From the NCBI RefSeq assembly GCF_044324785.1, contig NZ_CP172127.1: a stretch of 64,000 nucleotides of DNA. The stretch is one strand, 5' to 3'. Positions 7,448 to 43,983 of the stretch are shown one piece after another. Under the pieces are notes generated by a model. It had not been told where the DNA came from, made no database searches, and saw only the letters and a list, made by a program, of their open reading frames with translations. Each line of letters opens with the position of its first letter. Position 1 is the stretch's first letter. This DNA is from Escherichia coli (GTDB lineage Bacteria > Pseudomonadota > Gammaproteobacteria > Enterobacterales > Enterobacteriaceae). Both the position numbers and the translations under genes were made by a program.

Positions 7448-8371
7448 TTATTGGTTTCTGAGGAAAGCGATTCTTGAAAGGGTCATTTGCGTCTGGCAGT
7501 CGACCATTTTCTTGACTTCAGCATCTGTTCCCTGCATTGAAACTTTACCGCACATAGCATCCTTAGTTTTGATCCACTGACGCTGAGAAGGCAGCAAATC
7601 TTTTTTCTTCGCCGGGGTTAACTTGCTCCAGACGGTACTCAAATCAGAGTCGGCATTCGCAAATGCCATTCGGGACTGATCAAGGCTGTCAGCTTTTTGT
7701 GGCTGAAGTTGTGCCTGTCTCTCTATTTGCTTCTCCGCCTCATACTTAGCCTGTTCCTGCGCCCTGAGTTGCACCTGTTGTTCCGCTTCAATTTGGCTCT
7801 GTTGGGCATCCTTAGCCTGCTGGATTTTCTGCTGCTCAACGATCGGGTTGATAATAGAAAGTGATGTCAGTAAAGCGGCGCCCACTGATATCGGATTATC
7901 AGAAGAGGTTTTTACAAAAACGTTTTTCTGATCGTCGGTCGCCTGCACGGTGTAGGTGATACGTTTGGAAAAGGCGTTTGCGTTGTTCTCCAAAAACAGG
8001 CTTTCCATTTGCTTGTCGAGATTACGATTAAAATTCTTTCTGTAATCATCAGAAAGCTGGACGTATTCGTTCGCAGGTAGAGTCATCGTCACGGTCCCTT
8101 CACAAGTTTTCATTGTGCTGCCCGTGTCACTTGATGTTGTGGAGATTTCAGAGATGGCTAGTTTGATCTTGTCCAATGTGCTTCGTTTGGTCTGATTAGT
8201 GACATCAGGGTATTTATCGACCTGTTCAGAGAGTCCTTCATAAGCAGATTTTTTTAATAAATCCATAAGCGCTGACTGGGTTATTTCCGAAGAACAACCG
8301 ATCACATCTTTTTTGTTATCACAGCCTGTAAGGGCAATGGCGAGTAAGAGTACTGAGTATTTTAATCTCAT
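7448..8371 (-). CDS. lipoprotein with C-terminal DUF1311 (LprI-like) domain
   Basis: lipobox LTGC after signal peptide; Gln-rich coiled coil; C-terminal QRQWIKTKDAMCG...DCQTQMTLSRIAFL pattern. Confidence 0.55.
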   Translation of the reverse strand: MRLKYSVLLLAIALTGCDNKKDVIGCSSEITQSALMDLLKKSAYEGLSEQVDKYPDVTNQTKRSTLDKIKLAISEISTTSSDTGSTMKTCEGTVTMTLPANEYVQLSDDYRKNFNRNLDKQMESLFLENNANAFSKRITYTVQATDDQKNVFVKTSSDNPISVGAALLTSLSIINPIVEQQKIQQAKDAQQSQIEAEQQVQLRAQEQAKYEAEKQIERQAQLQPQKADSLDQSRMAFANADSDLSTVWSKLTPAKKKDLLPSQRQWIKTKDAMCGKVSMQGTDAEVKKMVDCQTQMTLSRIAFLRNQ

Positions 8372-8996
8372 GAATTCCCTTTAGAGTAAGGATTGGTTTT
8401 TAAGACGCGGTCTGTAATCAGTTCCGAGAGCTACAGTAAACAACGCTGAGCACTGAACGCATCACAGGCAAGGTAAAGGCGATATCGGCAAAGGCTGTGA
8501 AACCTTTAATTCAACAGATGGAAACGGTATGCGCAGGATCCTGTAACGACGCTCCCAAAACCGGAAACCTGTAAGGCATGTTTTCGCTGCTGAACTTAAT
8601 ATACGAACCTGCACTATCATGAACATATTTTATATCGTTATACCCCGAGTGATTGTGCCCGGCAATGGATAGTGTCCTGGAGGAACTATTTCTACTGTAA
8701 AAGGTAGACATTTAATTTCAGTGTGGAATTATTCCCTGCTGTTAATAACCATGGCTCTATATGGCACCGAGCGGACTAGTTAACTTGCCTGAAAGCCGCT
8801 ATGAGTGAGGAGCGAATATTGGCACGAGAGGATACCTGAACCATTTTTTGGACATGCGCTAAAAGCGAATGATTAGTTTTATCGGAATATTTACAGTATA
8901 CTTACAAGGCAAGCTTGGCGTGCCGTCTTGGGCGAGATTGCTTAAATTATTTTGTGGATATATCATTCAAACAAAAGATAATAAAATGAGGTTGTT

Positions 8997-9194
8997 ATGT
9001 CATATATTCGCGTAGAGAAAGATGGCCTTCAGTATGAAGCAGAATACTTCCGTAAAGAGGATATGGTCACAGTCTTTGGGGTTAGAGGAGGGCATTCCAG
9101 CGTGGTTCTAAATGGAATGACAGAAGTCGCGGCTGCTCGTACTGCGTTACGAAATCTTATTAGAGAAAATCAGGTTGATCCTCTAACTGATTAA
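8997..9194 (+). CDS. hypothetical small protein (65 aa)
   Basis: ORF in AT-rich island, GAGG RBS. Confidence 0.4.
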   Translation: MSYIRVEKDGLQYEAEYFRKEDMVTVFGVRGGHSSVVLNGMTEVAAARTALRNLIRENQVDPLTD

Positions 9195-9398
9195 AAATAA
9201 GCCATCTTAACTGAGAGCATATTTTGATATAATTTAGATTAAATCTATTTTGAAGGTTAGTTTGGGATGAGAAGATTACATCAAAACCGTTATTACTAGC
9301 AATAAGTTGTGTAAATCAAATAATACATAATCATGTGGTAACATATACTAAGCGTAGTAAAGTTTTTATATATTCCTGTAACTTTGTGAGAAACTTCC

Positions 9399-10064
9399 AT
9401 GAAAGCCGACAACTTAAGAATTATAGAGAATGGCAAATATGTTTTCGATATGTTCTTGGATACTGGTGAATTTTACTATACAAGTCATGCCTTTGACACG
9501 AGAGAAGATGCAAAAAGCTGGATGGAAGAATGGCAGATTTGGGCAAATAATGTATCGAGTGGGAAAGTAAGTAGTATTTATTATATTTTACAAGTGCCTG
9601 ATACTTGGGCCGGTTCTTCAGATAAAAATAACCCTTACTCGGGACTTTATGTGAAAATAGGGCGTTCCAATAATGTGCTAAAAAGGTTGTCTAACCTGCA
9701 GACAGGTGCATTTGGTCAATTAATATTACACGCTTTGGAACCTGGTGGTTCAGAAAAAGAAAACTATCTTCATGAAAAATTTAGCAACGAAAGACGTCAA
9801 GGTGAATGGTTTGTTTGTACTAAGGAACTTACCAAGCATATATTTACAACATGGTTTAAAAACAAAATGCTCCCACCAGAACATCAAATAAAAATAATGC
9901 AGCTCGCAGAAAGAATAGGTATTTATTCGCATGTTCATACACTAATGGGGGGGAAGCCAGACTTAGTAAACCCATCTATTAGTGAACCTTGGGAATGCGA
10001 AAAATATGTTTTGGTTGATATGATTTATAGCTCTTTAGCAAAGCAAGTTAATCATAAAAAATAA
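9399..10064 (+). CDS. T5orf172 (MUG113, GIY-YIG-like) domain protein
   Basis: YVKIGRSNNVLKRLSNLQTG ... LHEKFSNERRQGEWF matches the T5orf172 signature; unknown flanking regions. Confidence 0.6.
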   Translation: MKADNLRIIENGKYVFDMFLDTGEFYYTSHAFDTREDAKSWMEEWQIWANNVSSGKVSSIYYILQVPDTWAGSSDKNNPYSGLYVKIGRSNNVLKRLSNLQTGAFGQLILHALEPGGSEKENYLHEKFSNERRQGEWFVCTKELTKHIFTTWFKNKMLPPEHQIKIMQLAERIGIYSHVHTLMGGKPDLVNPSISEPWECEKYVLVDMIYSSLAKQVNHKK

Positions 10065-10384
10065 AGTGTTACATTTTAACCATACAATTATTGATTCACT
10101 AATGAAGAGGTGATTTAAACGTATGAAGTTTTAATAAGCTCCAAGAATATTTTGTCATACATGGGTTAAAGAGTTATATAATAATATCTGCTTCTGGAAT
10201 ACAGCAGACAAGCACCTGCAGATAAAGGTCTGCTGAGAGCGAGAAGCGGATCATACGTTGGAAGTTGTTTAGGCAAATACGTTATAAACGTATTTGATTA
10301 AATTTACTTGGATCATAGTCTTCAATAACGCTTTATTATATTGTTTTTCATGCAGCAAACAGGTTTACAGGTAGGTAATAAGCT

Positions 10385-10789
10385 ATGAGTGGATGGAAAG
10401 AGTCTTTTACATTAGCAGAACAGATACAATTAGCATTAAATTTAGGTTATGAGGCTGTACCAGATGAAGAGGCATATACTGGGGCATACTTCATTAAAGG
10501 TGGTAAGAAGTGGATCTTTAACATCATCGGTCTCAAAAAGACATTGAATATATCTTCAGATGATGAACTAAGAGGGCAGGATTATGATGTTGATATGTAT
10601 TTCGAAATTCGCCAAAATTGGGCACAATACCAAGATATGATCTTTGGAAGCGAAGATATCACTCCTTCACCTAAAAATGAACTTACTTCAATTTACCATG
10701 ACCTGCAGGTAACGGATGAACCCAGGGAAATGGTGTATCTTTCTGATGGGATGTGGCTGGATCCCAACGGACGAATTGTACAACGATAG
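10385..10789 (+). CDS. hypothetical protein (134 aa)
   Basis: ORF in AT-rich island with long AT-rich leader. Confidence 0.4.
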   Translation: MSGWKESFTLAEQIQLALNLGYEAVPDEEAYTGAYFIKGGKKWIFNIIGLKKTLNISSDDELRGQDYDVDMYFEIRQNWAQYQDMIFGSEDITPSPKNELTSIYHDLQVTDEPREMVYLSDGMWLDPNGRIVQR

Positions 10790-10898
10790 CACTCGAACAC
10801 ACTCAGTAATCGTCTATAAGGCCAGCACTTGTTACTTGGTCATTTGGGGTTGCTGGTCTTCTCCATTAAATCGACTAAAGTCTGTTCCATAGAGAGAG

Positions 10899-11504
10899 TT
10901 ACTTGCGTTTAAAAAGGTATTTTGTCACGACCAGCACGAGGCCGAATACCTCTGTCAAAGTACCGCCCATGTACAACTGGAGCGTTAAGTCTTTAAATAC
11001 AAGCCATTCAGCACCAGTGGCAAAAAATACACCATTCATTATCAAAAGCTGGCAAGCAAGGATAATAAGGAACCATTTGCCATAGCGTTTTTTTAGATCG
11101 ATTTCAGCTTCAAAATCTTTGTTGTTGAGTTGTTTGCGCTCATGCTCAGTATCAAGTGAATTCACCTGTTTCACAGATGTGAACTCGGTCAAGATTTTAC
11201 TCTCAGTACGGGTGACTTGTTGAGAGGGGGTAGGAATTGGAATTCTTTTGATTGACGCAGCTACAGCCATTTTGCGAGCTTCGGCAGCTCTTTTTCTGGC
11301 TATTCCGTGAATACGGGCAGACGGTTTTTTTGGAGCATGCGAAACCTTTGTCTGAGGTGAAGTTTCGTCAGGAGACTGAACCGGAGTTTCATCCTCCTCC
11401 GGCTCAACCTCTTCTGCTAACTGACGGTGTAGGTTGAGGGAATCCTTCAGTCGGCGTGCAACTTCCTGTTTGAAACGGCTGTTAAAATCGTCATCCGATG
11501 GCAT
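10899..11504 (-). CDS. membrane-anchored protein (charged N-terminal region, two C-terminal TM helices), partner of ImmA-like peptidase
   Basis: start 9 nt after peptidase stop, RBS inside peptidase 3' end; hydrophobic segments WFLIILACQLLIMNGVFFATGA and LVLVVTKYLF. Confidence 0.55.
   Translation of the reverse strand: MPSDDDFNSRFKQEVARRLKDSLNLHRQLAEEVEPEEDETPVQSPDETSPQTKVSHAPKKPSARIHGIARKRAAEARKMAVAASIKRIPIPTPSQQVTRTESKILTEFTSVKQVNSLDTEHERKQLNNKDFEAEIDLKKRYGKWFLIILACQLLIMNGVFFATGAEWLVFKDLTLQLYMGGTLTEVFGLVLVVTKYLFKRK
10901..10978. repeat. direct repeat copy B (~78 bp), coding for the C-terminus of 10899..11504
   Basis: pairs with 7301..7377. Confidence 0.8.
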
Positions 11505-11513
11505 TCTAAAGCG

Positions 11514-12002
11514 TTACCCCAACCTCAAGTTCTTTAAACGATAAGTCATCGCATCGTCAGATACGCCAAAATGATGCGCCATTATATAACTTGGTTGGCC
11601 GTCAGCGTGCAGTTTTCTGACCTCATCTACCGGCATCAGAAGTTCTGCTGCGAACTTGTTCGCAAAAATTTCATCAGGATGCGTTCCGGCGCTTGCGGTT
11701 TCGCCACGTAAATCAACGTACTCATATTCATCGCTATGCGATGCTTGCCGGGCGATGTAATGCCCCAACTCATGCCCACATGAAAAACGTTGACGAACTT
11801 TGTTGTCATCACTGTTTAGAAAGATCGCTGGATCTTGATCTTTTTGTTTAATCAGTGCGCCAGAAACTTTCCCAGGAAGATCGGTAATAAAAACATCTAA
11901 TCCCATGTCGTGAGCAATTTTCGCTGGATCAACAGGGAAACCACGCCCGCACCAGAACGTGTCCAGCACTCGCCGGGCGTGCTCTCTTGGGTTGGTAGCC
12001 AT
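11514..12002 (-). CDS. ImmA/IrrE-family zinc metallopeptidase (DUF955)
   Basis: HELGHY zinc-binding motif and downstream EIFANKFAAELLMP segment. Confidence 0.7.
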   Translation of the reverse strand: MATNPREHARRVLDTFWCGRGFPVDPAKIAHDMGLDVFITDLPGKVSGALIKQKDQDPAIFLNSDDNKVRQRFSCGHELGHYIARQASHSDEYEYVDLRGETASAGTHPDEIFANKFAAELLMPVDEVRKLHADGQPSYIMAHHFGVSDDAMTYRLKNLRLG

Positions 12003-29177: not shown

Positions 29178-29858
29178 GTGGCCGATTTACGTAGTAACGC
29201 GCAGATGTTCGATATCGATGTTTCGGCGCTGGAGCAGCTCAGAGTCGAAATCAGCGCGACGCAACATCAGATGCTGATGGCATACAACAGAGCGCTGAAC
29301 CGAACTGCAAAGCATATGCACCGAATTTCAGCAGGAATTATTTTGACTGCACTGGCAGCTAAAAATCATAAGGCCGTAAATAAACGAATCAAACCGTTCA
29401 TTAAGCGCCGCAATTTTACGAAAGAAGGGGCAGGAGATCTGAGTAGCGTAAAACTCTGGTACGGCCTGAACGATTTCCGTGTATCTGAGCTAAAGGGGCG
29501 ATTACAAAATCCCAGGAAGCAGAAGCAGCCTCGCAATCCAGAGACCGGTCAATTTTTGAAAACAAAAAAAGGCGCTCGAGGGGCAACTTTTACGCCCAAA
29601 AGTGCAGGGCTGGCGATGATTAGTTGGCCAGATTCATTCGTAGCGAAACGCTACGGTGCGAAAAGCGTCTGGATTCGACTGGCTCGCGGAGGAATCGAAG
29701 AGGCTCGCGTACCTGTGCACGACGCGCTTGAGGATGCTATCGATGATTATATTTTTGAAAACATTGGCCCTGTTTTCATGGACTTTTTTGAGAAAGATTT
29801 GCGCGGTCGAGTGAAAGGACGCGTTCACGTAGACCCTAAAACAGGTAAACGATTATGA
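29178..29858 (+). CDS. hypothetical virion morphogenesis / tail completion protein
   Basis: GTG start with GGGGGAA RBS; first gene of tail module. Confidence 0.4.
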   Translation: MADLRSNAQMFDIDVSALEQLRVEISATQHQMLMAYNRALNRTAKHMHRISAGIILTALAAKNHKAVNKRIKPFIKRRNFTKEGAGDLSSVKLWYGLNDFRVSELKGRLQNPRKQKQPRNPETGQFLKTKKGARGATFTPKSAGLAMISWPDSFVAKRYGAKSVWIRLARGGIEEARVPVHDALEDAIDDYIFENIGPVFMDFFEKDLRGRVKGRVHVDPKTGKRL

Positions 29859-30391
29859 GCGGACTGGATGCATTTGACGAATATCTTGATCGCGTTAAAG
29901 GCGCGGTTTTACAAATACCGTTCATCAAAACATTCGGAATTTATCCAGAAATTCCGGCAGGATTTGAAACGCCAGCTCTGTTCCTGGAAATCAGCAACTG
30001 GTCACAGAGTGACGAATCGGTTCCAGGCTCAATTCAGTCAGTCGAGCTGTCGTGTAATTTGTATTTGCTGCGTGAGTTTGCTGCGGATCGGTACGGACTG
30101 AAATCGCAGAATGCAGCGCTCTATATGACGAGCTGGATTAATGGGCGAATGTTTGGTGCCGGAACTAAACCAGCAAAATTCAGCGACGCGGAACCGTGTG
30201 ACTGGATTAAAAACGGGCAGTCAGTCGGCTCGCATTCAGTTCAGTGCGTGTCGTTCACGCAGGTTGTCGGCGTTGGTCCCGATATTTTCGATTATCCCTC
30301 ACAGGGAACACTGAAAAATATATACGTCGGAATAGCGCCAGATATCGGCGCAGAACACGAGAGCGACTACTATGGCCCAATCGGACGATGA
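29855..30391 (+). CDS. hypothetical tail-associated protein
   Basis: coupled to neighbours in tail operon. Confidence 0.4.
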   Translation: MSGLDAFDEYLDRVKGAVLQIPFIKTFGIYPEIPAGFETPALFLEISNWSQSDESVPGSIQSVELSCNLYLLREFAADRYGLKSQNAALYMTSWINGRMFGAGTKPAKFSDAEPCDWIKNGQSVGSHSVQCVSFTQVVGVGPDIFDYPSQGTLKNIYVGIAPDIGAEHESDYYGPIGR

Positions 30392-32540: not shown

Positions 32541-33167
32541 ATGACAAGTCAAAGCGTACTGCCTCCGAACGCAATAACCCCCGAGAGAGCGCTGGAATCT
32601 GTTTTATCTCACGTTGGCGATCTGCCTGGCGATATTCGAATTATTAAAAATCCCGATTTGTGTCCTGCAAATCTGTTGCCGTGGCTGGCGTGGGAATACG
32701 CCGTCACCTACTGGAACCCCGACTGGAGCGAGCAGCAAAAACGCGAAATTATTAAAGCAGCTGCGTGGCAGAACAAGCACCGCGGAACGCGTGGAGCTGT
32801 TGAACGAGCGTTATTAACAGTTGGATTTGAGAGCAAAATGAGAGAGTGGTTTGAAGCCACGCCGAGGGACGACCCGTATACATTCGCAATTAAAATATAT
32901 CTGCTAAAAAGTATAGGGTTAGATTTAGAGCTATTGAATACATTTATAGCGCAAATATTTGATGCAAAAAATTGTCGTTCATTATTAAAGGAAATAAATT
33001 TCGAAACGGGTGTCGATGGTGAGTTTTTTATAGCCGGTACACCTTACGCGAAAATAGACGTAAACGTCCCAGCAGACGGCGACGGCGGTGTAAAAATTAA
33101 CGGCGGGCTATATATATCGGGCTCACCAATTGTTAGTTTAAATGTGGAGATAGGGCCAAATGGCTGA
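32541..33167 (+). CDS. tail protein I (baseplate)
   Basis: size and order as P2 I. Confidence 0.7.
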   Translation: MTSQSVLPPNAITPERALESVLSHVGDLPGDIRIIKNPDLCPANLLPWLAWEYAVTYWNPDWSEQQKREIIKAAAWQNKHRGTRGAVERALLTVGFESKMREWFEATPRDDPYTFAIKIYLLKSIGLDLELLNTFIAQIFDAKNCRSLLKEINFETGVDGEFFIAGTPYAKIDVNVPADGDGGVKINGGLYISGSPIVSLNVEIGPNG

Positions 33168-34284
33168 AAATAAAATTTACGCAGTACTGACAGACCGTGG
33201 CGCACAACTCGAGGCCGCTGCCCTGGCGTCAGGCGTTCCAGTGGTGCTGAACAAATTTGTTATCGGTGACGCGAACGGAAACGACGATGTAACACCAGAC
33301 CCTGCACGAACAGCATTAATTCACGAGACGTATCGCGGTGATATTAAATCGTCAGAAAATAGCGGTAATCAGGTTATTTTTACGCTATACGTACCACCGG
33401 AAACCGGCGGCTATACTATCCGCGAAGTGGGAATACTGACAGATAAAGGTGAACTGTACTCTGTAGCGCGTTCGCCGGATATTTTAAAACCCACGGACAG
33501 TAACGGCGCGCTGATTTCAATCACGTATAAATACACTCTCGCGGTGTCCAGCACCTCTACAGTTAATGTTGTAGTATATGACAACTACGTAACTCCCGAA
33601 GCAGCTGACAAAAAATATTTGCAGATAAGTAAAAACTTATCTGAAATTTCCGCAAATGGTGAAACTGCTCAGCAGGCTGCGCGGAAAAATATTGGTATAG
33701 ATGGGGATGTTGCATATAGAGATAAGAGTAATACATTTACAACTCAAAACACTTTCAAAGACGATGTTTTTTTTGAAGATATTTTGATTTCTAAAAAACA
33801 AATAAATATAAATAAACCAGATACCAACTTGACATTATTTTCGCTTGCGGGCTGGTCAGATGTGAGCGGTGATTATTTAGAAGTGTCGACGCGGGGGGGA
33901 AATAATCAAAACGTTTTTTATAGATTACGCGGAATTCACTATGACGGCCTGGTGTTACTGTGCGGCGGGCAGACGTATAAATATTGGAATGAGGGAAATC
34001 TTAAACCGGTTAAAACGATTAACGGGAAGTCCCCAGACGCTAACGGGAACGTCGCAATAACAGTAAGTAGCTCAGGGATACAGAACGTCCAGCTTGGCGC
34101 AGAGGTTGCTCACACACCGGCGAGTAATGAGGTTACGTGGGACTTTAAATGTCCGACCGGCTGTGTTCTTACTGGGATATATGTTCAGGAAACCGGCGAC
34201 AGCTCAGCTGATAATATCGGCGGTGTTTATTATAAACCGATCCAAAAATACATTAATAATGTATGGACTACGATTTCCGGATGA
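33160..34284 (+). CDS. tail fiber protein
   Basis: conserved N-terminal fiber domain, AT-rich variable C-terminal half. Confidence 0.7.
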   Translation: MAENKIYAVLTDRGAQLEAAALASGVPVVLNKFVIGDANGNDDVTPDPARTALIHETYRGDIKSSENSGNQVIFTLYVPPETGGYTIREVGILTDKGELYSVARSPDILKPTDSNGALISITYKYTLAVSSTSTVNVVVYDNYVTPEAADKKYLQISKNLSEISANGETAQQAARKNIGIDGDVAYRDKSNTFTTQNTFKDDVFFEDILISKKQININKPDTNLTLFSLAGWSDVSGDYLEVSTRGGNNQNVFYRLRGIHYDGLVLLCGGQTYKYWNEGNLKPVKTINGKSPDANGNVAITVSSSGIQNVQLGAEVAHTPASNEVTWDFKCPTGCVLTGIYVQETGDSSADNIGGVYYKPIQKYINNVWTTISG

Positions 34285-34287
34285 GTT

Positions 34288-34866
34288 ATGCAAAATTTAA
34301 AATCATTTAAGCTTGTAAAACCTAAAACGAAATTACTTAAACTTAGCGAGTCTGACGGACAAAATGTTTTGTATCTTCAGTCCGAAGACGGCCTGGATTG
34401 GTATGAATGCCAGTCACTGTATCGCGATGACACAGTAAAAATAATGTACGACAAAGAAAACATTATTCGATCAGTTGTTGATCGCCCGGTCCCGGAGCGA
34501 GGAAATACCTATTCTGTGAGCATGTTTTTCCCGATTGATATGAGTGTTACGGAGGTTGAGTTGAGCACATATCCTTCTGAGCTAACTCTCGACGGATCGT
34601 GGAAATTTGTTGACGGTGATGTATATCAAGATGAGCTCATTGTAAATGAGCGTATTTACAAAGAAAACTCCAAAAAAATTAATGAATTAGTCCGAGAGGC
34701 TCAGTCAGCAATTCTAAATTTACAAACGGCCATAGAGATTGATATTTCATCAGATGGTGATGAGGAAAAATTAATAGAATGGCGACGGTACCTGTGCGCG
34801 CTGAATAAAATAACAGCCACGGATCTGAGTCAGTCCCCACTTAACACGCCTTTACGACCAGCATAA
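34288..34866 (+). CDS. tail fiber assembly chaperone
   Basis: immediately downstream of fiber gene. Confidence 0.5.
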   Translation: MQNLKSFKLVKPKTKLLKLSESDGQNVLYLQSEDGLDWYECQSLYRDDTVKIMYDKENIIRSVVDRPVPERGNTYSVSMFFPIDMSVTEVELSTYPSELTLDGSWKFVDGDVYQDELIVNERIYKENSKKINELVREAQSAILNLQTAIEIDISSDGDEEKLIEWRRYLCALNKITATDLSQSPLNTPLRPA

Positions 34867-34878
34867 ATAGGGTACCTA

Positions 34879-36384
34879 ATGAGCACTAATTTTTTACACG
34901 GTATTCGCACGCTCGAATACGACGACGGCACAAAAGAGATTAGCACGGTAGATATTTCAGTTATCGGGATTGTTGGTACTGCACCGGATTCCGCGCAATC
35001 AACCAGTTCCGAGTTAATAACAGGGAGTGCTATTTTAAAAAACCGCCTGAAATTCACGGCGACGGGACAGGGGGTGAACGGCAATTCATGGAGCGTAGAG
35101 ATTCTCGAAACCGATCCGGACGGCTGCACGGCACTGTGGAGTGATATGCCCGACGGGAGTCGACGTTTATCAATATCAGTCGCACCGGCATCCGGCTCGC
35201 ACGGATACACCCCAGCAGAAATCGTGCAGGCAGTCACAATAGCAAACCCGCCTCCGGACCAATTATTTTTAACAATTACGGCAGTAGATGTCGAGGAGGA
35301 CGCGGGAAATGTGACTGCCTCACCGTTGCAATATTTAAGCGGCGGCAGTGATGAGGCGTTCCCAATTAATACCCCCGTACTTGTTGCCGGGAGTCCAAAA
35401 AAATCCGCTTTACTGGGTGAGCGCGGCACGTTGCCGAAAGATATTGCCGATATTTTCAATCAGGACAACGCCTTGCTTGTTGTTGTACGAGTAAAAGATG
35501 ACAAAGACACAACAAAACAACAGCAAAATATTATCGACGGTGTCAAGCAGCTGGAAAAATCGAAACAGTTAACCGAAGTCACACCGCGTATTATTATTGC
35601 ACCAGATTTTAGCGCAATTGATGCGATAGCCGCTCAGCTTGAGGTGGCCGCAAATAAACTCCGGGGGGTGTGTTATATAGACTCTCCGCGCGCTGCTACC
35701 CCTGCAGACGTTGTGAATCGCCGGCAAAAACTCGGCGGACGTGCTGAGTTGTTGCGTCCCCGTGTTTATTCAACTAGCGACGTCGGGGGGCAATCAAGAC
35801 CGTATTCTGCCATCGCTGCTGGTTTACGAGCCAGAATTGATAATGAAAAAGGGTTTTGGTGGAGTAAGTCGAATCAAAATATTTATGGAATAACAGGGCT
35901 TGAGCAGGTTGATGATTTCATTATTGGCGAGACAAACTGCACAGCGAACCTGCTGAACGCTAGTCAGGTCAGCACCATCATTCGCTATGACGGATTCCGA
36001 CATTGGGGTAACTATCTGTGCAGCCTGGATCCGCAATGGTCGTTTGAATGCGTTCGTCGAACAGCTGACGTAATTGAGGATTCTATAGCCCGGGCAATGA
36101 TGACCGATTTTATTGATCGCCCGATAGACCTGCATCTCGGAACAGACGTTGTCGAGTCGATAAACGCGTATCTGCATAAATTAGAGGAGCAGGGTGCGAT
36201 TAACGGAGGGCGTGCGTGGTTAGACGGTGAGCTGAATACAAAAGAAAGTCTGGCCGCTGGCAATCTTTATATTAATGTTGATTTTGGTCCGAAATCTCCG
36301 GCACAAACAATTACGTTAATGTACCGCATTAATAATGACTATACAGTTGAAGCACTAGCCTCACTTTTTAAAGAAACAGCCTGA
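34879..36384 (+). CDS. contractile tail sheath protein
   Basis: N-terminus MSTNFLHGIRTLEYDDGTKEISTVD resembles P2 FI / Mu L. Confidence 0.85.
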   Translation: MSTNFLHGIRTLEYDDGTKEISTVDISVIGIVGTAPDSAQSTSSELITGSAILKNRLKFTATGQGVNGNSWSVEILETDPDGCTALWSDMPDGSRRLSISVAPASGSHGYTPAEIVQAVTIANPPPDQLFLTITAVDVEEDAGNVTASPLQYLSGGSDEAFPINTPVLVAGSPKKSALLGERGTLPKDIADIFNQDNALLVVVRVKDDKDTTKQQQNIIDGVKQLEKSKQLTEVTPRIIIAPDFSAIDAIAAQLEVAANKLRGVCYIDSPRAATPADVVNRRQKLGGRAELLRPRVYSTSDVGGQSRPYSAIAAGLRARIDNEKGFWWSKSNQNIYGITGLEQVDDFIIGETNCTANLLNASQVSTIIRYDGFRHWGNYLCSLDPQWSFECVRRTADVIEDSIARAMMTDFIDRPIDLHLGTDVVESINAYLHKLEEQGAINGGRAWLDGELNTKESLAAGNLYINVDFGPKSPAQTITLMYRINNDYTVEALASLFKETA

Positions 36385-36401: not shown

Positions 36402-36914
36402 ATGTCAGACAGCAACGCTTACCGCGCGTTTGCGCTATTCGTGCAGGGCGAACGGGTTTTAAATTGTACTGAATATACTCCTGTCGATATGAAAATAATC
36501 GAGGACGAGTTTAAAACAGGCGCGATGGATACAGCTATCACATTAGATGGCGGTATGGAGAAAATGTCAGCCAGTTTTAAAGTTTCGGGTTCTGATTCTG
36601 GTGTTATGAGCTATTTCGGGTTAATACCGGGAGTCAAGACGCGGTTTGAAATTCGTAGTGCGTACACAGACTCCTATGGAATAAATTTTGAGCGTATTGA
36701 TACCTACGAGGGACTTATTACGGCAATCACTGATGACGCTCAGGGGACTGATTCAAAATCGTCAGTGGGGCAATCAGTAACGATTGCGCCGAGCTATTAT
36801 AAACGAGTTCAAAATGGACGAATTATTTACGAAATTCATCCTGCAAAAATGAAACGCGTTATCAACGGTGTTGATGTTCTTGCGGGCGTCGCTCGAATCC
36901 TTCATGTATATTAA
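36402..36914 (+). CDS. tail tube protein
   Basis: 170 aa following sheath. Confidence 0.8.
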   Translation: MSDSNAYRAFALFVQGERVLNCTEYTPVDMKIIEDEFKTGAMDTAITLDGGMEKMSASFKVSGSDSGVMSYFGLIPGVKTRFEIRSAYTDSYGINFERIDTYEGLITAITDDAQGTDSKSSVGQSVTIAPSYYKRVQNGRIIYEIHPAKMKRVINGVDVLAGVARILHVY

Positions 36915-37316: not shown

Positions 37317-38957
37317 ATGGCTATTTCTCAAAACTTTAAAACGCAGGTTGTATTCGGGGGGCGAATAGACCCGTCGTTTCGGCGCGGTACAACAGAACTC
37401 AACGACGCCATTCGGCAGACGTCGTCTACTGTCGGAAAATTAACGAAAAGCCAGGATAAATTAAAAGACAAAATCGCAGCAATGAAACTGGCAGGTAAAG
37501 ATGTCTCTGATTTATCTGCTCAATATCAAAAGCTGGACCGTCGGATAAAGGCGACAACGCAGGACCAGGAGGCGCTGAATACCCAGCTTGCTAAAAAACA
37601 GCGGCTGGAGAAGTGGACGGGGCGCGCAAAAGGTGCTGCAAAATGGGGCGGACGAGCCGCCGCAGGTGCGGTGAGGGCCACGGGACGGGGTATCAAATGG
37701 GGGACGCTGGGGGCCGTGGGTCTGCTCGGCGGCGCGGCTGCTGGCGCGCTGGCAATGAATGCAGAGACGTCAGAAAAACTCGGTCTGGCGAAGTCCTACG
37801 GTGTTGGCATCGAAAAATACGCTGCGTGGGAAAATATTGGTAAAGCTGCGGGCCTGAACGGCGAAAATGTTGGTGACCTGTCAGAAGAACTTACAAATAA
37901 AATCGGCGAAATCGGAAACGAAAAAAACCTGAACCCCATGTTGTTTCAAATTGGCTTGACAAAAAAACGGATGGCTAAATGGGATCGAGAAAAACAGTTC
38001 AATGAAGTTATGCGGCGTATCTCTGAAATGAAGGATGATCAACAGGCGGCGAGTCTGGCTGATCAGCTAATGGGGGGAGAGGCTAATAAAATAATGACCT
38101 ATATGCGGGCGACTGGTAAAAGCTGGGAGCAGACTATGTCGGACGCTCAAAAATCAAACCTGCTAACGAAAGAAGGGGCTGAGGGTGCAGCGCGCGCGCA
38201 CGTATCCGTCACGAATCTGTGGGGGGCAATCACATCGGGGCTGGCAGATACTCTCGGCAAAATCGGAGGGGAACTCGCGCCGACGTTTGACGCTATGCGA
38301 GACGGGCTGGCATCCTGGTTTAAAGAGAATCAAGGGGGGGTTGTTGATAGTATTAAAGAATGGGTTAAGCCAGAAAATATGAAAAAACTTTGGGAGGGGA
38401 TAGTCAGTTTTGGCGAGGCGTGCGTTAAATTCGGAAAAATAATTTGGGCAGTCGTAAAAAAACTGGAGTGGTTAATCCCGGACGAGAAAACAGACGAGGA
38501 ACAGCGCGTATATAACGAAGAATATAATAAAGCGTATCAGGAATTCATGGATAGTGGTGGTAAATATTCACCGAACCCAGGACTGGCAGCAGATAATGTA
38601 GCAAAAGCAAAAGCCGACGAAGCCGTGGATAATATGCGACACCCTGAACGTCTTGCTCGTGCAAAATCACAGGCTGAATCAATGCTCTCGTTTGCTAACC
38701 CGTTTACTGGATTAATAAATAAAGACTCAACGCCTGAATCACAAAACTCAGCAACGTTGAATATTGACGCGCTGAGACAGGCAGTCGCAACTCCAGCGCC
38801 AGAGCAAAACAATAAAATTGAAATCAATATTATCGGAGCAGCAGATCCACAATCAACACAGCAGGCTGCCGCATCGGGTGTGCTCGACGGGCTGAGACAG
38901 GTTGCGAGTTCGTACAATCGTGGTGCAATGTTTGATAAACCAGCGGCGGCGGGGTGA
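37317..38957 (+). CDS. tail tape measure protein
   Basis: 546 aa, coiled-coil and Gly/Ala-rich segments. Confidence 0.7.
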   Translation: MAISQNFKTQVVFGGRIDPSFRRGTTELNDAIRQTSSTVGKLTKSQDKLKDKIAAMKLAGKDVSDLSAQYQKLDRRIKATTQDQEALNTQLAKKQRLEKWTGRAKGAAKWGGRAAAGAVRATGRGIKWGTLGAVGLLGGAAAGALAMNAETSEKLGLAKSYGVGIEKYAAWENIGKAAGLNGENVGDLSEELTNKIGEIGNEKNLNPMLFQIGLTKKRMAKWDREKQFNEVMRRISEMKDDQQAASLADQLMGGEANKIMTYMRATGKSWEQTMSDAQKSNLLTKEGAEGAARAHVSVTNLWGAITSGLADTLGKIGGELAPTFDAMRDGLASWFKENQGGVVDSIKEWVKPENMKKLWEGIVSFGEACVKFGKIIWAVVKKLEWLIPDEKTDEEQRVYNEEYNKAYQEFMDSGGKYSPNPGLAADNVAKAKADEAVDNMRHPERLARAKSQAESMLSFANPFTGLINKDSTPESQNSATLNIDALRQAVATPAPEQNNKIEINIIGAADPQSTQQAAASGVLDGLRQVASSYNRGAMFDKPAAAG

Positions 38958-39382
38958 CAATGAGTGATGCAATAAACGGTGCTGAGGATATCATGCTCGG
39001 TTTGGGTGATTTCATTTTTGCTATATCAACAGTAGCGTACAACAAACTGCAACGTAGTGACGCCTGGCGCTGGGCTCAGCAAACACGATTCGGGAAAAAC
39101 GACGCATTGCAGATAACCGGACGACCGAACCCCACAATCACGATCGATGGGAAAATAAACGCGTTATTCCTTGATGGGTGCGGCATTGGCTTGTTAACAG
39201 ATTTGCGGGCACTGGGGAACTCGGGAGAACCCCAGCAACTGGTGCTGGGGACCGGGGAGGTGAAGGGGTACTGGGTTATCAGGGAGTTAACAGAAACGCA
39301 AAACAGTTTTCTGAAAGGAGGGACCCCAAAATCGCAGGACTTTTCACTCACGCTCGAATATTATGGAGCTTCGCTAGATTAA
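38954..39382 (+). CDS. tail protein U
   Basis: pattern matches P2 gpU family. Confidence 0.7.
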   Translation: MTMSDAINGAEDIMLGLGDFIFAISTVAYNKLQRSDAWRWAQQTRFGKNDALQITGRPNPTITIDGKINALFLDGCGIGLLTDLRALGNSGEPQQLVLGTGEVKGYWVIRELTETQNSFLKGGTPKSQDFSLTLEYYGASLD

Positions 39383-39544
39383 TACAAAATCAAGCGCTAC
39401 CAGAGCACTTAACAAGTATAAAAATAATAAAAAAAACTACGAGCATAAATGTAAAACAACCTGATGGTATTTTTTTTTGACGCCGAAATACTAATACCTC
39501 TCCGACTACTAAAATTAATTCTCATTATGAAATCCTTTTAATTA

Positions 39545-39769
39545 ATGGGGCCCCAAATGATTACATACACTACACGGGACGGTGACCGTCTCGATCAGAT
39601 CTGCCTTGCTGTCTACGGGAGAACAGCAAAAACGACAGAAACCGTGTTATATCAGGTTTTAAATTACGGCGTAACGGATATGTGTGCCGTGTTTCGTGCA
39701 GGAGAAAAAATTGTTTTACCAGAAATCGACCCCGAACCGGCTAAAAAAGAAACGCAATTATGGGATTGA
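39545..39769 (+). CDS. tail protein X (LysM-like)
   Basis: DRLDQICLAVYGRT ... ETVL pattern as P2 gpX. Confidence 0.7.
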   Translation: MGPQMITYTTRDGDRLDQICLAVYGRTAKTTETVLYQVLNYGVTDMCAVFRAGEKIVLPEIDPEPAKKETQLWD

Positions 39770-39772
39770 TGA

Positions 39773-40816
39773 ATGAGTGATTACGTAAATACTGGCGTGG
39801 AAGCATGGAAGCCCAATTTTTATATATCTGCTGATAATGAAAACATCACGGATAAAATAAGAAAAGGTTTGATCAATATCACGCTCACAGATTATGGTGG
39901 TTCGAGTAAACAGACAGACGAATTACGCGTAGCAATCGTTTCTGAAACTCTGAAAATTCCGGCCCGCGGAGTAAAAATCAGTATTGGGCTCGGTTTCGGT
40001 AATCAGATAATTGATAAGGGTGTATACATCGTTGATGGTGCGAGCAGTGGCGGTGAACCCCGGGTAGTTGATTTCACAGCAAAAGCAGCTCCGATGAACG
40101 CATCAAAAGGCTCTCCGACAGTTCAGAGCAAAAAAACTCGCTCCTGGAGCGACGTCACTGTCAGCAATATCGTTGCAACAATAGCGAGCGATAACGGGCT
40201 AAAACCTCGCGTATCAAAGCGGTTTGCAGACAACATTATCACGCAGCTCGATCAAGTCGGCGAGTCAGATATGCACCTGATGTCGCGGCTCGCAACGAGA
40301 TTCGATGCGGTGAGTAAACCCGCGGGCGGGTACTGGATATTCCTGCCGCGCGGCGCGGGCGAATCTGTTAGCGGAGCACCGCTTCAGCACTACACGCTCA
40401 CGCGTCGTGATAACTCAAGCTGGGGTTATTCGAGAAATGGACAAAACGGTGATAGTGGCGGAGGTGGCGAAAATGCGGAGCCAACGTATTTGATCAAATA
40501 TCACGATACAGCAACGGGGCAGATCAAAGAATTGCGTACGGGCAGTGGCGGCGATCCTGTAATCGAGTGGCCGGCAGTGGAGCCGTCGCTTGATGCAGCG
40601 AAAGAAGCTGCGCCAGGACTCAAGGGCGGTGCAGCTAAAAAAGAGTTCTCCATGACTTACACGACGCCCGCGACGCTCGATTTAGTATCGCTGACTGCAG
40701 AATGCAAAGTCACAACACAAGGATTCGGGACAGAGGAGGACCGAGACTGGACAATCAATACGTTGACGCTGACGCTGGCTGAAAACGGATTCTCTGCGCG
40801 ACTGTCGCTGGAGTAA
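39773..40816 (+). CDS. tail protein D (late control D family)
   Basis: 347 aa, last gene of P2-like tail order. Confidence 0.8.
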   Translation: MSDYVNTGVEAWKPNFYISADNENITDKIRKGLINITLTDYGGSSKQTDELRVAIVSETLKIPARGVKISIGLGFGNQIIDKGVYIVDGASSGGEPRVVDFTAKAAPMNASKGSPTVQSKKTRSWSDVTVSNIVATIASDNGLKPRVSKRFADNIITQLDQVGESDMHLMSRLATRFDAVSKPAGGYWIFLPRGAGESVSGAPLQHYTLTRRDNSSWGYSRNGQNGDSGGGGENAEPTYLIKYHDTATGQIKELRTGSGGDPVIEWPAVEPSLDAAKEAAPGLKGGAAKKEFSMTYTTPATLDLVSLTAECKVTTQGFGTEEDRDWTINTLTLTLAENGFSARLSLE

Positions 40817-40821
40817 ATGAA

Positions 40822-42648
40822 ATGGCAATAATATCGGGTGTATACGCAAATGGGGTCGGCGAGCCCGTTGTCGGCGTTCAGTTAGTATTAACAGCACGGG
40901 TCACGAGTTCACGCGTAGTAATGACCACTGTTGTAGAGCAAGAAACAGGCGCGGCGGGTGAGTACAAATTTGATATGAAGCCCGGAGTTTACGTTGTCAC
41001 TGCTAGTGCGGCATATCTCGGCGTGATTAACGTTAACCCGGACAGTGTTGACGGCACGTTAAACGACTATTTGACTAATTTTAGCGCAGACGAACTGACG
41101 CCAGCTGCGTTGGCGGAGATCCAGGAACTCGTTGCCACAGCACAAGCCGCTGCCAGTGTTGCCAGCGCCGCCGCAACGGAGGCCAGGCAGAATGCCGCCG
41201 CCGCCGCTGCTGCTGCGCAGATTTCGACGGCAGCGGCAGGGAGCGCCAGATTTGAGAATTTTGACGAAATTATCAATGTCAATACAACAGCAATGCTGGA
41301 GCTGGAAAAACCGGAGGTGTTAGATCCGGATATTGCAATAACTATCACAGAGACGATTAATTATAACTATATTGGCCCGGTAAACGGATTTTGCGACGTT
41401 ACTAGCCCGCTTGAATATAAAATTCAAATGTACGCCTACACAACAGGCGAATATTTTAACGGCGAAACAAATTTAACAGCGGACGGGAAGTTTTCTTTTA
41501 AACGTTCCTGGGCTGGTGCAAAACAATTCAGATTGGTGCGCGTAGCAGATAGTAAATGGATCACTACGCTGGAATACCCGCTGTGTATTCGCAGTTACTG
41601 GATGCCCGCTGACGCCGATCCCGAGGTAGTCAGCGTCATGAAAGACCGTTGCTACACATATGATCAGGCGTGCGCGGCGCTGGCTCTCATGGCGCAGAAT
41701 CACGAGGCGGTAGAGCGTTATGTTACGGGTCTGTGCGCCCTGGTGGGTGAAAACGGCGGCATTAAATTTTTTGTTAACCGGCTGTCCGCACAGTCCTCCC
41801 GCGAATATTACCGCACGGGTAACGCGGCGTGGGTGTTGTACGCCCTGGCATTCTATCTGAGCAAATACCCTACCGGCAGTAACGCTGAGTTAGCGCGCGC
41901 GAAATTAAACGCCGGGCTAACCTGGCTGGACGGTCTGAAGGTTGACGCCAGCGGCGACCCGCGCCACGGCTTATACATGGGCGGCAACGGTAAATATCTG
42001 GAGGACGGATCATTTGATCCGAATTATGTTGCGACCTGGTGCGCGCTCGAGCACAACGTTGATATTTATTTTTTATTCGAACTCGTTGGACGGTTAACCG
42101 ATTTTACCGGATACGAACTGCGAGCCACCACGCTGGCTGCAAATATCGTGGAAAAATTCTGGATTGAGAGCGAGGGGCGATTCCGGCAGGGCGTGCACAT
42201 TGACGGCCCGGACAACGCCGCAGCGCTGGATCAATCGAGTTGGGGCGGGATATTCGCAGTAAAAGCCGCGCCGGAGTTGGCGGAAAAATGCCGCCGTTAT
42301 ATGGAAAGATTCCGGTTCGGCACACTGGAGAGCACCGGTTATACACCGTATCACCCGGACTACGGATACAGCGGCCATAGCCGTGGCGTGTGGACCGAGG
42401 GTACAGCGGGTGTAGCACTATTCGAACGTGCGCTAGGGAACGAGCAGAGAGCTACCGATCTGATCGCGGGATTAAAACCACTGCGTAATGAATACGGCTA
42501 TCGCGACTCATGCGACGATAAAAAATACGACACACTGCCGGACTGGCCGTCGACTACAAACACCGCTTGGGTTATTTTAACATGCAAGCCGGCGGGGTTT
42601 TGGTGCGTAGATTTCCCGGTATTGGACGTTGGTATCGTCAGGTACTGA
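40822..42648 (+). CDS. side-tail-fibre-like N-terminal domain fused to putative (alpha/alpha)6 glycoside-hydrolase-like domain
   Basis: N-terminal ~100 aa parallel lambda Stf N-terminus; Ala-rich linker; ~400-aa C-terminal domain with glycosidase-like character. Confidence 0.5.
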   Translation: MAIISGVYANGVGEPVVGVQLVLTARVTSSRVVMTTVVEQETGAAGEYKFDMKPGVYVVTASAAYLGVINVNPDSVDGTLNDYLTNFSADELTPAALAEIQELVATAQAAASVASAAATEARQNAAAAAAAAQISTAAAGSARFENFDEIINVNTTAMLELEKPEVLDPDIAITITETINYNYIGPVNGFCDVTSPLEYKIQMYAYTTGEYFNGETNLTADGKFSFKRSWAGAKQFRLVRVADSKWITTLEYPLCIRSYWMPADADPEVVSVMKDRCYTYDQACAALALMAQNHEAVERYVTGLCALVGENGGIKFFVNRLSAQSSREYYRTGNAAWVLYALAFYLSKYPTGSNAELARAKLNAGLTWLDGLKVDASGDPRHGLYMGGNGKYLEDGSFDPNYVATWCALEHNVDIYFLFELVGRLTDFTGYELRATTLAANIVEKFWIESEGRFRQGVHIDGPDNAAALDQSSWGGIFAVKAAPELAEKCRRYMERFRFGTLESTGYTPYHPDYGYSGHSRGVWTEGTAGVALFERALGNEQRATDLIAGLKPLRNEYGYRDSCDDKKYDTLPDWPSTTNTAWVILTCKPAGFWCVDFPVLDVGIVRY

Positions 42649-42676
42649 CAATTATAATTTTTGGAGTTTTTTATAC

Positions 42677-43096
42677 ATGGTCGTTAAAAATATTCTTGCC
42701 TTTGGGATTATGTGTGCGCTTGCTGGTTGTGCAACCAAGCCAGTCTCAAACGAGCAGGCTACTCCCGTTCCAGAAAAACAGGTAATCAATAGCGCAATAC
42801 TCGAAAAAAGAGATGGGACAGGAGAGGTGATCATCAAGCGTGATTCGGGTTTCTTTGGGAGCGCGTGCTTTTCCCGTGTTTATGTTGATGGTAAAGAGGT
42901 GGCAGATTTAGGTACAGCTCAGAAAGTCGTTGTATACCCAACGATTGGTGATCATGTCTTCAGCGCGTGGCCAAAAGGAGTATGTGGTGGTGGCATGAGT
43001 GAGCAGGCGGGCAAGGTGACAACAGATCGTACTTTGATGTATCGCATAGGTTACGGTTCAAACGGTGAATATGGCATTCACCCAACTGCGTTTTAA
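42677..43096 (+). CDS. lipoprotein (about 139 aa from internal ATG), prophage-end cargo
   Basis: GGAG RBS then MVVKNILAFGIMCALAGCATK with lipobox; last gene before att. Confidence 0.5.
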   Translation: MVVKNILAFGIMCALAGCATKPVSNEQATPVPEKQVINSAILEKRDGTGEVIIKRDSGFFGSACFSRVYVDGKEVADLGTAQKVVVYPTIGDHVFSAWPKGVCGGGMSEQAGKVTTDRTLMYRIGYGSNGEYGIHPTAF

Positions 43097-43253
43097 CTGT
43101 GTTGGGTATGCGATTTTATTCGCATACCCCTTAGGGCAATTGACGATACTTCCAAATGACCATTATTTTACGTGTGGCCTCGATGTTGCGCACATGAGAG
43201 TTCTATATTCTTTCAAACAGGATTATCCCATTGATTTAATTATACTTTCGTAT

Positions 43254-43314
43254 GGTCTCGAAAACCGGAGTAGGGGCAACTCTACCGGGGGTTCAAATCC
43301 CCCTCTCTCCGCCA
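43254..43314 (+). other. 3' fragment of tRNA-Ser (anticodon CGA; anticodon loop to CCA), putative prophage attachment-site remnant
   Basis: ggtctcgaaaaccggagtaggggcaactctaccgggggttcaaatccccctctctccgcca matches the 3' part of a serU-type tRNA-Ser; 5' acceptor/D-arm absent. Confidence 0.6.
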
Positions 43315-43983
43315 CTTTATCAATGACTTATCTCCCGACTTCCCGCCTTGCTTTTCCTAAACAGAACAATCGTAGAATATTCTTGAAGGGTTAGATCGTC
43401 ACTGTTTTCTGTTCGATACTGTGACATTCAGCACTTGATTCGCTATGGATCTGACAGGAAGGTTTCGAGCGAAAATCTGCAGTTATTCAGTCGTTTTCTT
43501 ATCGCTCACCATTATTCTTTTAGACATTCATCCTATGAAACTGCCGCAAAGTTGGTGGTGGGAACTGAAGTTGCGTAGAGAAGGGGGCAATAATTGAGCC
43601 AAAAAAGGAACGCGGCCGTCAGATTAAAGCCGCGGGACAAAGTCCATAATTTCCAAGAGTTGTTGAATTTCCCAGCTTTTTTGAAAGCCTTTGTATCATA
43701 CTAACAAGTAAAAAAGGTTTAAATACCAAAATTAACCTATATTTCTGGTTAGCTTTACCATGACAGATGACTTGCTTCTGGAGACATTGGCGCTGCCAGT
43801 CTGTATTGGTGAGTTGTGTATTTATTGTTCGCCGCTTTCTCGGTTTTTTTCTACAGACATAATAAAAAAGACACGTCTCAAGCATGAGCGTGTCTGAGTT
43901 TGTTTTATTTATTTGTCTTGGTAAATTATTGTCGTTACTACCAGGCACTGTTCTGTTAAATAATTGAAGTCAGCGCAAAAAAA

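Follow-up and report, generated by a model that had tools for sequence, protein, structure and literature searches.

The 64,000-nucleotide stretch of Escherichia coli DNA analysed here (contig NZ_CP172127.1 of assembly GCF_044324785.1; hereafter the window) carries a mosaic prophage at positions 1-43100, and the last late gene of this prophage, at 40822..42648, joins a lambda-type fibre anchor to a glycoside-hydrolase-like head. All features are on the plus strand unless stated otherwise. The gene is an intact open reading frame (ORF) for a protein of 608 aa and carries every motif that an earlier annotation made from the letters alone (the sequence-only reading) had quoted from it. Its ATG at 40822 stands 5 nt past the TAA stop codon (40814-40816) of a gpD-like baseplate hub gene (39773..40816; phrog_52, E=1e-92; PF05954 Phage_GPD on orthologues), and a GGAG ribosome-binding site (40810..40813), also read from the sequence, lies 8 nt ahead of the ATG and overlaps the end of gpD. 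This site and the overlap imply co-transcription and tight coupling with the tail late operon; a promoter and terminator scan, in which the number of sites was not above chance expectation, placed no promoter-like site in the 5-nt gap between gpD and the fibre gene. The whole gene is assigned to an accessory (second) tail fibre or spike, and database matches label it a tail fibre: PHROG families 13714, 7032 and 4128, all 'tail fiber protein', match the 608-aa protein with E-values down to 1e-214, and NCBI holds a 100% identical protein named 'prophage tail fiber N-terminal domain-containing protein'. The fibre has no match in NCBIfam or PADLOC.

The N-terminal part is an anchor of the type found in the side tail fibre (Stf) of lambda. 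Residues 1-92 (40822..41097) make up an N-terminal Stf (StfN)-type anchor, or 'collar', domain: the Pfam family PF08400 ('Prophage tail fibre N-terminal') matches residues 3-126 (E=9.6e-25, score 87.6), and phmmer aligns residues 4-85 with chain Ta of PDB entry 9e7m, the resolved Ur-lambda Stf 1-94 (E=6.5e-9). By sequence comparison the likeness to lambda Stf is far beyond chance, and the lambda Stf-type N-terminus proposed by the sequence-only reading has survived both the profile and the sequence search. StfN of Ur-lambda consists of a six-strand sheet and a helix, followed by a ~10-residue flexible linker and then a coiled coil (PMC12617516), and the anchor, linker and long helix of a full-length AlphaFold2 (AF2) model match this layout, with strands at residues 2-7, 20-27, 37-41, 47-52, 55-61 and 64-71 and a helix at 80-84. 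The flexible linker and Ala-rich helical stalk span residues ~93-162 (41098..41307). The model places stalk helices at 94-137 and 147-161, the long helix being of low confidence as a monomer, and the predicted local distance difference test score (pLDDT) falls below 50 at residues 86-100 and 129-141. The Ala-rich linker, likewise noticed before, is visible in the DNA as GCC/GCT runs at about 41140-41230 and coincides with the predicted long helix. By its likeness to lambda Stf, the stalk is probably a trimeric coiled coil. Inside its own prophage lineage the StfN domain is 86-97% identical, but identity drops to 34-42% against those StfN domains of lambda and siphoviruses that were compared, and its β5-β6 loop is 5 residues shorter than that of lambda.

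The stalk is followed by two domains, where a single hydrolase-like domain of ~400 aa had been described before; the glycoside-hydrolase-like character holds by fold and conserved pattern, but the region divides into a β-sandwich and a barrel. The β-sandwich (residues ~172-252; 41335..41577) is modelled with pLDDT>90 and has strands at 173-175, 187-191, 199-206, 210-217, 223-226, 233-240 and 246-252. The head proper (residues ~266-608; 41617..42645) is a predicted twelve-helix (α/α)6 barrel with helices spanning residues 267-588, assigned as glycoside-hydrolase-like from the model and its conserved residues. Residues 150-608 were also modelled on their own from 39 diverse homologues, and this second model is very confident, with a pLDDT of 95.4 and a predicted template modelling score (pTM) of 0.94. 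Among its structural relatives a fold search returned a GH15-related glycosidase (GH, glycoside hydrolase), a dextran dextrinase, the GH8-like amylase CPF_2247, GH76 mannanases, AGE-family epimerases and a glucoamylase, and Foldseek gives the same fold class, so that structure prediction and fold search place the C-terminal part in a glycosidase-like class. The head is α-helical in the model and is not a right-handed parallel β-helix catalytic domain.

An exhaustive HMMER search found that the head family comprises 559 clusters at 50% identity and spans cellular genomes and the phages of Proteobacteria, Actinobacteria, Thermus and Firmicutes. Its relation to solved structures is confined to fold: the family profile (A2) found no PDB chain even at E<=10, with sub-threshold hits only from a few members, a PDB sequence search with the full protein returned lambda StfN as the sole match, and the divergent actinobacterial member P0183 yielded no solved head relative. 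Across 39 members at ~25-30% identity, Y280, D281, R331, G333, Y340, G388, E410, H411, D414, W447, L469, D470, W474, E526, G527 and W583 are invariant or nearly so. These residues are mostly acidic or aromatic and lie together on one face of the modelled barrel, Y280/D281, R331, E410/H411/D414, D470/W474, E526 and W583 mapping to the N-termini of helices 2, 4, 6, 8, 10 and 12. It is on this face that (α/α)6 glycosidases place their acid, their base and their sugar-stacking aromatics, and the arrangement of the conserved residues in the model resembles the usual layout of a catalytic face. In the methylmannose polysaccharide hydrolase MmpH, the acid Asp47/Asp50 lies in the αA-αB loop and the base is Glu262 (PMC9883506). 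The acidic residues of the head may correspond to these, their sequence positions loosely resembling those of the MmpH acid and base.

The head occurs in many settings, its homologues in those listed here being 42-95% identical. It is found on a PF08400 anchor in the J-lom-stf slot of phage phiSTEC1575-Stx2k, and close homologues of the whole 608-aa protein fill the same slot in lambdoid phages. It is also fused to PF12571, PF18668, PF03406 and PF25613 anchors, forms the second fibre after a fibre and Tfa gene pair in a P2/HP1-like prophage, and is present in a jumbo coliphage, in minor tail proteins of Microbacterium phages and in Thermus phages. P0019, the 608-aa homologue with the widest occurrence (hundreds of assemblies), ends a heavily degraded prophage remnant at the E. 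coli Rac site (loci L017/L022), by uspF-ompN-ydbK, where it follows another fibre gene and Tfa, and no head or tail-shaft genes are left between the Q region and those fibre genes. Matches to StfN in Stx phages were also considered as possible short-tailed phages; the one inspected, Stx2a_F349, is a long-tailed lambdoid with a J-lom-stf arrangement.

Anchor and head have different histories. Pairwise blastn places a recombination joint at 41133..41343: homology to contractile-tail prophage DNA stops at 41132, and homology to the lambdoid prophage of strain JNE151685 begins at 41344. Left of the joint, positions 39700-41132, which cover gpX, gpD and fibre residues 1-104, are 93-96% identical to the contractile-tail prophages of ETEC1738, C41 and S42, whose own fibres have 315, 336 and 226 aa and different C-termini. 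Right of it, positions 41344-43450, which cover fibre residues 175-608, a lipoprotein gene and the flank of the right attachment site (attR), have 94.8% DNA identity to the JNE151685 prophage, which lies at the same yodB/zinT site, encodes a gpJ-related tail tip protein and carries the head at the end of a 915-aa PF08400 fibre. Since a lambdoid siphovirus prophage at this very site shares head, lipoprotein gene and attR flank at ~95%, it is the head that was swapped. The sequence-only reading had offered a module swap as one account of the gene, and a swap did occur, but what was exchanged is the C-terminal head with the lipoprotein gene and attR flank, and not the anchor. Nor is this anchor type limited to lambda-type tails, with which it had been associated: the domain is indeed that known from lambda Stf, but phiP27, a phage with a sheath and a Mu-like tail, also has a PF08400 fibre.

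The spread of this StfN subtype was followed by per-segment BLAST of homologues, look-ups of locus context and a scan of IMG/VR. In all places found it stands directly after gpX-gpD: at the serU/yodB, yecA and icd sites of E. coli, in Salmonella and in all four of the IMG/VR loci. One of the IMG/VR contigs, of 44.8 kb, holds gpX, gpD, head and lipoprotein gene at 100% identity and StfN at 99%, all at one contig end. The divergence of StfN tracks that of gpD: relative to the window, an icd-site E. coli prophage shows 78% identity for StfN, 74% for the head and 87% for gpD, and a Salmonella prophage 75% for StfN and 74% for gpD. Over synonymous divergence (dS) of about 1-1.7, the ratio of non-synonymous to synonymous substitution rates (dN/dS) lies at 0.04-0.15 in StfN and at 0.12 in the head. 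An anchor that is linked to gpD wherever it was found and kept under purifying selection is a resident of the tail lineage and not cargo, the other account given by the sequence-only reading. On these sequence comparisons the anchor is an old component of the tail family, maintained by selection, and the head is what was exchanged.

Taken together, these observations lead us, with moderate confidence, to regard the 608-aa protein as an accessory side fibre; its head would bind a polysaccharide on the host surface and probably hydrolyse it. It is a second fibre because the prophage retains, upstream, a primary P2 gpH-like tail fibre (33160-34284; phrog_5075 and phrog_381; PF12571 on orthologues) together with its Tfa chaperone (34288-34866; phrog_136, tail fibre assembly; PF02413 on orthologues). 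Its accessory status is supported by two close relatives that were inspected, in which gpD is directly followed by the lipoprotein gene and the fibre cassette is cleanly absent. That the head serves on phage tails is indicated by the PHROG 'tail fiber' label, the J-lom-stf slot, the other fibre anchors and the Microbacterium minor tail proteins. A tail spike or depolymerase, as had been suggested from the letters, is the most likely identity given the modelled fold and the pattern of conserved residues.

In the proposed model, the protein would be a dispensable second receptor-binding fibre (side fibre or spike) of this mosaic temperate phage, whose head and early region are lambda-like and whose contractile tail is P2-like. 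The StfN domain would fix the protein to the tail, the Ala-rich helix would probably trimerise into a stalk, and each chain would end in the β-sandwich and the (α/α)6-barrel head, which would bind and most likely hydrolyse O-antigen, capsule or another exopolysaccharide of the host surface. By analogy with lambda Stf and the T5 side fibres, the fibre may speed reversible adsorption or clear a path for the gpH-like fibre, the essential adsorption work being presumably done by the latter and the baseplate. The head and the lipoprotein gene would form a cassette that recombines among prophages of different tail types while the anchor stays with its tail lineage.

Several points weigh against this reading. 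The head has no significant sequence match to a Pfam glycoside hydrolase family, an NCBIfam model or a PDB chain; the (α/α)6 fold also houses epimerases, isomerases and terpene cyclases; all cellular head homologues checked are labelled 'hypothetical'; and the hydrolase role suggested by the modelled fold and conserved residues belongs to a family with no member of known activity or substrate. In a set of 5426 complete E. coli genomes, the 3' end of gpD has matches in 453 and the gpD-StfN junction is retained in 23, so that most of the ~450 genomes with this prophage family match the gpD part of the junction query only. In contractile tails, the surface on which lambda StfN docks is covered by sheath and baseplate. 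No isolated and imaged phage of this tail family has the fibre, and of four close 'vB_EcoM' records considered as isolated virions the sole one inspected, 720R5, is a prophage cut-out that still contains yecA; these records do not count as evidence for isolated virions.

The alternative that best survives, though we consider it unlikely, is a virion fibre whose (α/α)6 head binds glycan in the manner of a lectin without cleaving it. It would account for a head that stands outside the characterised glycoside hydrolase families and has a fold shared with non-hydrolytic sugar-binding enzymes, and lambda Stf itself is purely a binding fibre. The near-invariance of D281, E410, D414, D470 and E526 across phage and cellular members at 25-30% identity argues for the hydrolytic head, such conservation being typical of catalysis and not of strain-specific binding, as does the loose resemblance of the acidic positions to the acid in the αA-αB loop and the base Glu262 of MmpH.

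We consider it improbable that the protein is a passenger which is not assembled on the contractile tail, whether as a leftover of recombination or as a reservoir of fibre modules, perhaps for co-resident lambdoid phages. The known StfN docking site is the siphovirus junction of tube and Dit, the head, lipoprotein gene and attR flank are common to a lambdoid prophage at the same attachment site, many relatives are without the gene, and the commonest homologue, P0019, lies in a degraded remnant; all of this would suit a passenger. Yet the gpD-StfN junction is kept at several integration sites and in Salmonella, StfN has diverged in step with gpD under purifying selection, the gene has a favourable position for translation within the late operon, the low identity of this StfN subtype to the lambda and siphovirus domains compared speaks against a recent import, and a fibre of this kind also occurs in phiP27, a further phage with a contractile tail. 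Other phages have free depolymerases, and the gene sits at the prophage end by a moron-like lipoprotein gene with its own promoter-like site, but an enzyme released in soluble form at lysis, or a factor of lysogenic conversion acting on host polysaccharide to remodel it, is highly improbable for a protein in which fibre anchor and stalk are complete, whose gene is tied to the late tail operon with no promoter-like site in the 5-nt gap, and in whose N-terminal sequence no signal peptide was seen by eye (no predictor was run).

An accessory side fibre on a contractile tail raises the question of how its anchor docks. In Ur-lambda, twelve StfN domains form a collar round the place where the last tube ring, of gpV, meets the gpM ring, and this collar carries four trimeric fibres (PMC12617516). 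As that docking surface is buried in a contractile tail, docking would have to differ in the phage described here. The neck below the lambda-type connector and the top of the baseplate may be considered as candidate sites. Neck and tail gene content does not differ between prophages that carry the fibre and those that lack it, and the dedicated adaptor gene sought in this comparison was not apparent. It is conceivable, although we hold this more tentatively than the accessory fibre itself, that StfN is a general adaptor for rings of tube-fold proteins that docks away from the lambda tube/Dit junction, and that the head represents an uncharacterised family of glycoside hydrolases as its founding phage-borne member; such a head family may act as a depolymerase of a non-β-helix type.

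The closest known system is lambda Stf, with which the fibre shares the PF08400 collar, the six-strand-plus-helix topology, the flexible linker, the helical stalk and the status of an accessory, non-essential fibre encoded at the end of the tail cluster. It differs in its StfN (~37-42% identical), in having an (α/α)6 barrel instead of a gp37-like tip, in the lack of a Tfa gene next downstream, in following gpD and not gpJ-lom, and in belonging to a contractile tail. L56 of the Stx2e phage phiP27 is likewise a PF08400-type second fibre, whose gene, at the right end of a phage that has a sheath gene, comes after those of the primary fibre and Tfa, but the tail module is Mu-like and not P2-like, the C-terminus is another one, and its StfN is 45-51% identical to that of lambda against 40% to that of the window. 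The P2 gpH/gpG system is encoded by the window phage itself (33160-34866), and the same head type occurs on a gpH-type PF12571 anchor in other prophages; the 608-aa fibre differs from it in having no gpH-type N-terminus and in following gpD, outside the V-W-J-I-H-G block.

With tailspikes and depolymerases among receptor-binding proteins, the fibre shares an N-terminal anchor, a C-terminal head predicted to act on polysaccharide and the horizontal swapping of heads between anchors; nearly all of those characterised are trimeric β-helices or β-propellers, unlike the head described here, and α/α toroids made up ~1% of the candidates in the DepoScope survey (PMC11326577). MmpH (PDB 7QSJ) and clan GH-L-like (α/α)6 glycosidases (GH15, GH125) are 9-14% identical to the head with no relationship detectable by hidden Markov models (HMMs), and the head differs from them by its attachment to a phage fibre. 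Literature searches on PF08400, on α/α-toroid receptor-binding proteins and on lambdoid phages with P2-like tails brought up no account of this fibre type.

As a mosaic phage fibre the protein is fairly ordinary, mosaic fibres being expected. Its interest lies elsewhere: the 2025 Ur-lambda structure shows StfN clasping an exposed tail tube, and a selected StfN fibre on a sheathed tail needs another docking mode, which bears on the transplantation of fibre anchors between tail types in phage engineering. If true, the adaptor reading of StfN would mean that a phage with a contractile tail bears side or neck fibres in the style of lambda. The head family is sizeable and unannotated and looks like a new glycosidase family in phages of very different hosts, and its substrate, once identified, would add a non-β-helix class to the depolymerase toolbox. 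The locus also illustrates that receptor-binding heads, and not anchors, move between siphovirus and myovirus prophages at one attachment site.

The remainder of the prophage is in keeping with its mosaic nature. The early region is lambda-like (CII, O and a DnaB-type helicase), as are the head and connector genes (TerL, portal, protease, D, E, FI and an FII-like gene). The P2-like contractile tail is complete by PHROG matches (tail completion, V, W, J, I, sheath, tube, E-like chaperone, tape measure, gpU, gpX and gpD), which bears out the placement of the fibre gene after gpD of a P2-type tail by the sequence-only reading. Orthologous or near-identical loci carry the Pfam labels Phage_sheath_1, Phage_tube, Phage_TAC_7, Phage_P2_GpU, Phage_tail_X, Phage_GPD, Tail_P2_I, Phage_tail_fib and Caudo_TAP; no gpJ, gpV or gpM-type genes were found in the window prophage. 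Within this module the tube gene lies at 36402-36914 and gpU at 38954-39382, and proteins of 226 and 178 aa for the neck or tail completion are encoded at 29178-30391. The sheath protein (34879-36384) has 501 aa and seems to hold an extra insertion domain relative to P2 FI, which has about 396 aa. Between gpU and gpX, related prophages (loci L011-L016 and L007) have a small gene for superinfection immunity (PF14373) that runs on the opposite strand; in the window this interval contains only a 38-aa ORF (39409-39525), and the PF14373 gene appears absent or degraded.

The sole Tfa gene of the prophage follows the gpH-like fibre, and the 608-aa fibre is followed instead by the gene for a 139-aa lipoprotein (42677..43096; phrog_890 'lipoprotein', E=7e-52), with an LAGC lipobox in its translation and no Pfam or PADLOC match. 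This gene accompanies the fibre slot in contractile-tail and lambdoid prophages, with 85-95% DNA identity at four loci (L001, L002, L003 and L008), and may serve as a moron or in superinfection exclusion. Ahead of it, at 42629-42658, stands a promoter-like TTGGTA-18-TATAAT, a weak hint of a promoter in a scan whose sites did not exceed chance. Further downstream, a 61-nt tRNA-Ser-like 3' fragment (43254..43314), read by eye as variable arm, T arm, 3' strand of the acceptor and CCA, is probably the attR core and marks the right end of the prophage; the tRNA looks like serU. ARAGORN found no complete tRNA anywhere in the window, and the sole Rfam match to the fragment is antisense, to the plastid element Plastid-psbl-rps4, from which we infer its tRNA-Ser-likeness. 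Beyond attR lie zinT, msrQP, hiuH and hprRS, and the integrase gene and left attachment site (attL) must be located immediately outside the left end of the window. Of the host genes, yodB is absent: 222 bp (43762-43983) take the place of the ~995 bp, including yodB, that separate the attachment-site flank from zinT in JNE151685. At the other side of the prophage, GC content is low (0.39-0.42) at 8000-12000, especially at 10899-12002 on the minus strand, where the ORF at 11514-12002 matches CapP / ImmA-IrrE-type peptidase models (PADLOC capP, E=1.9e-25) and may form a regulatory or defence-associated pair with a neighbouring 201-aa ORF on the same strand.

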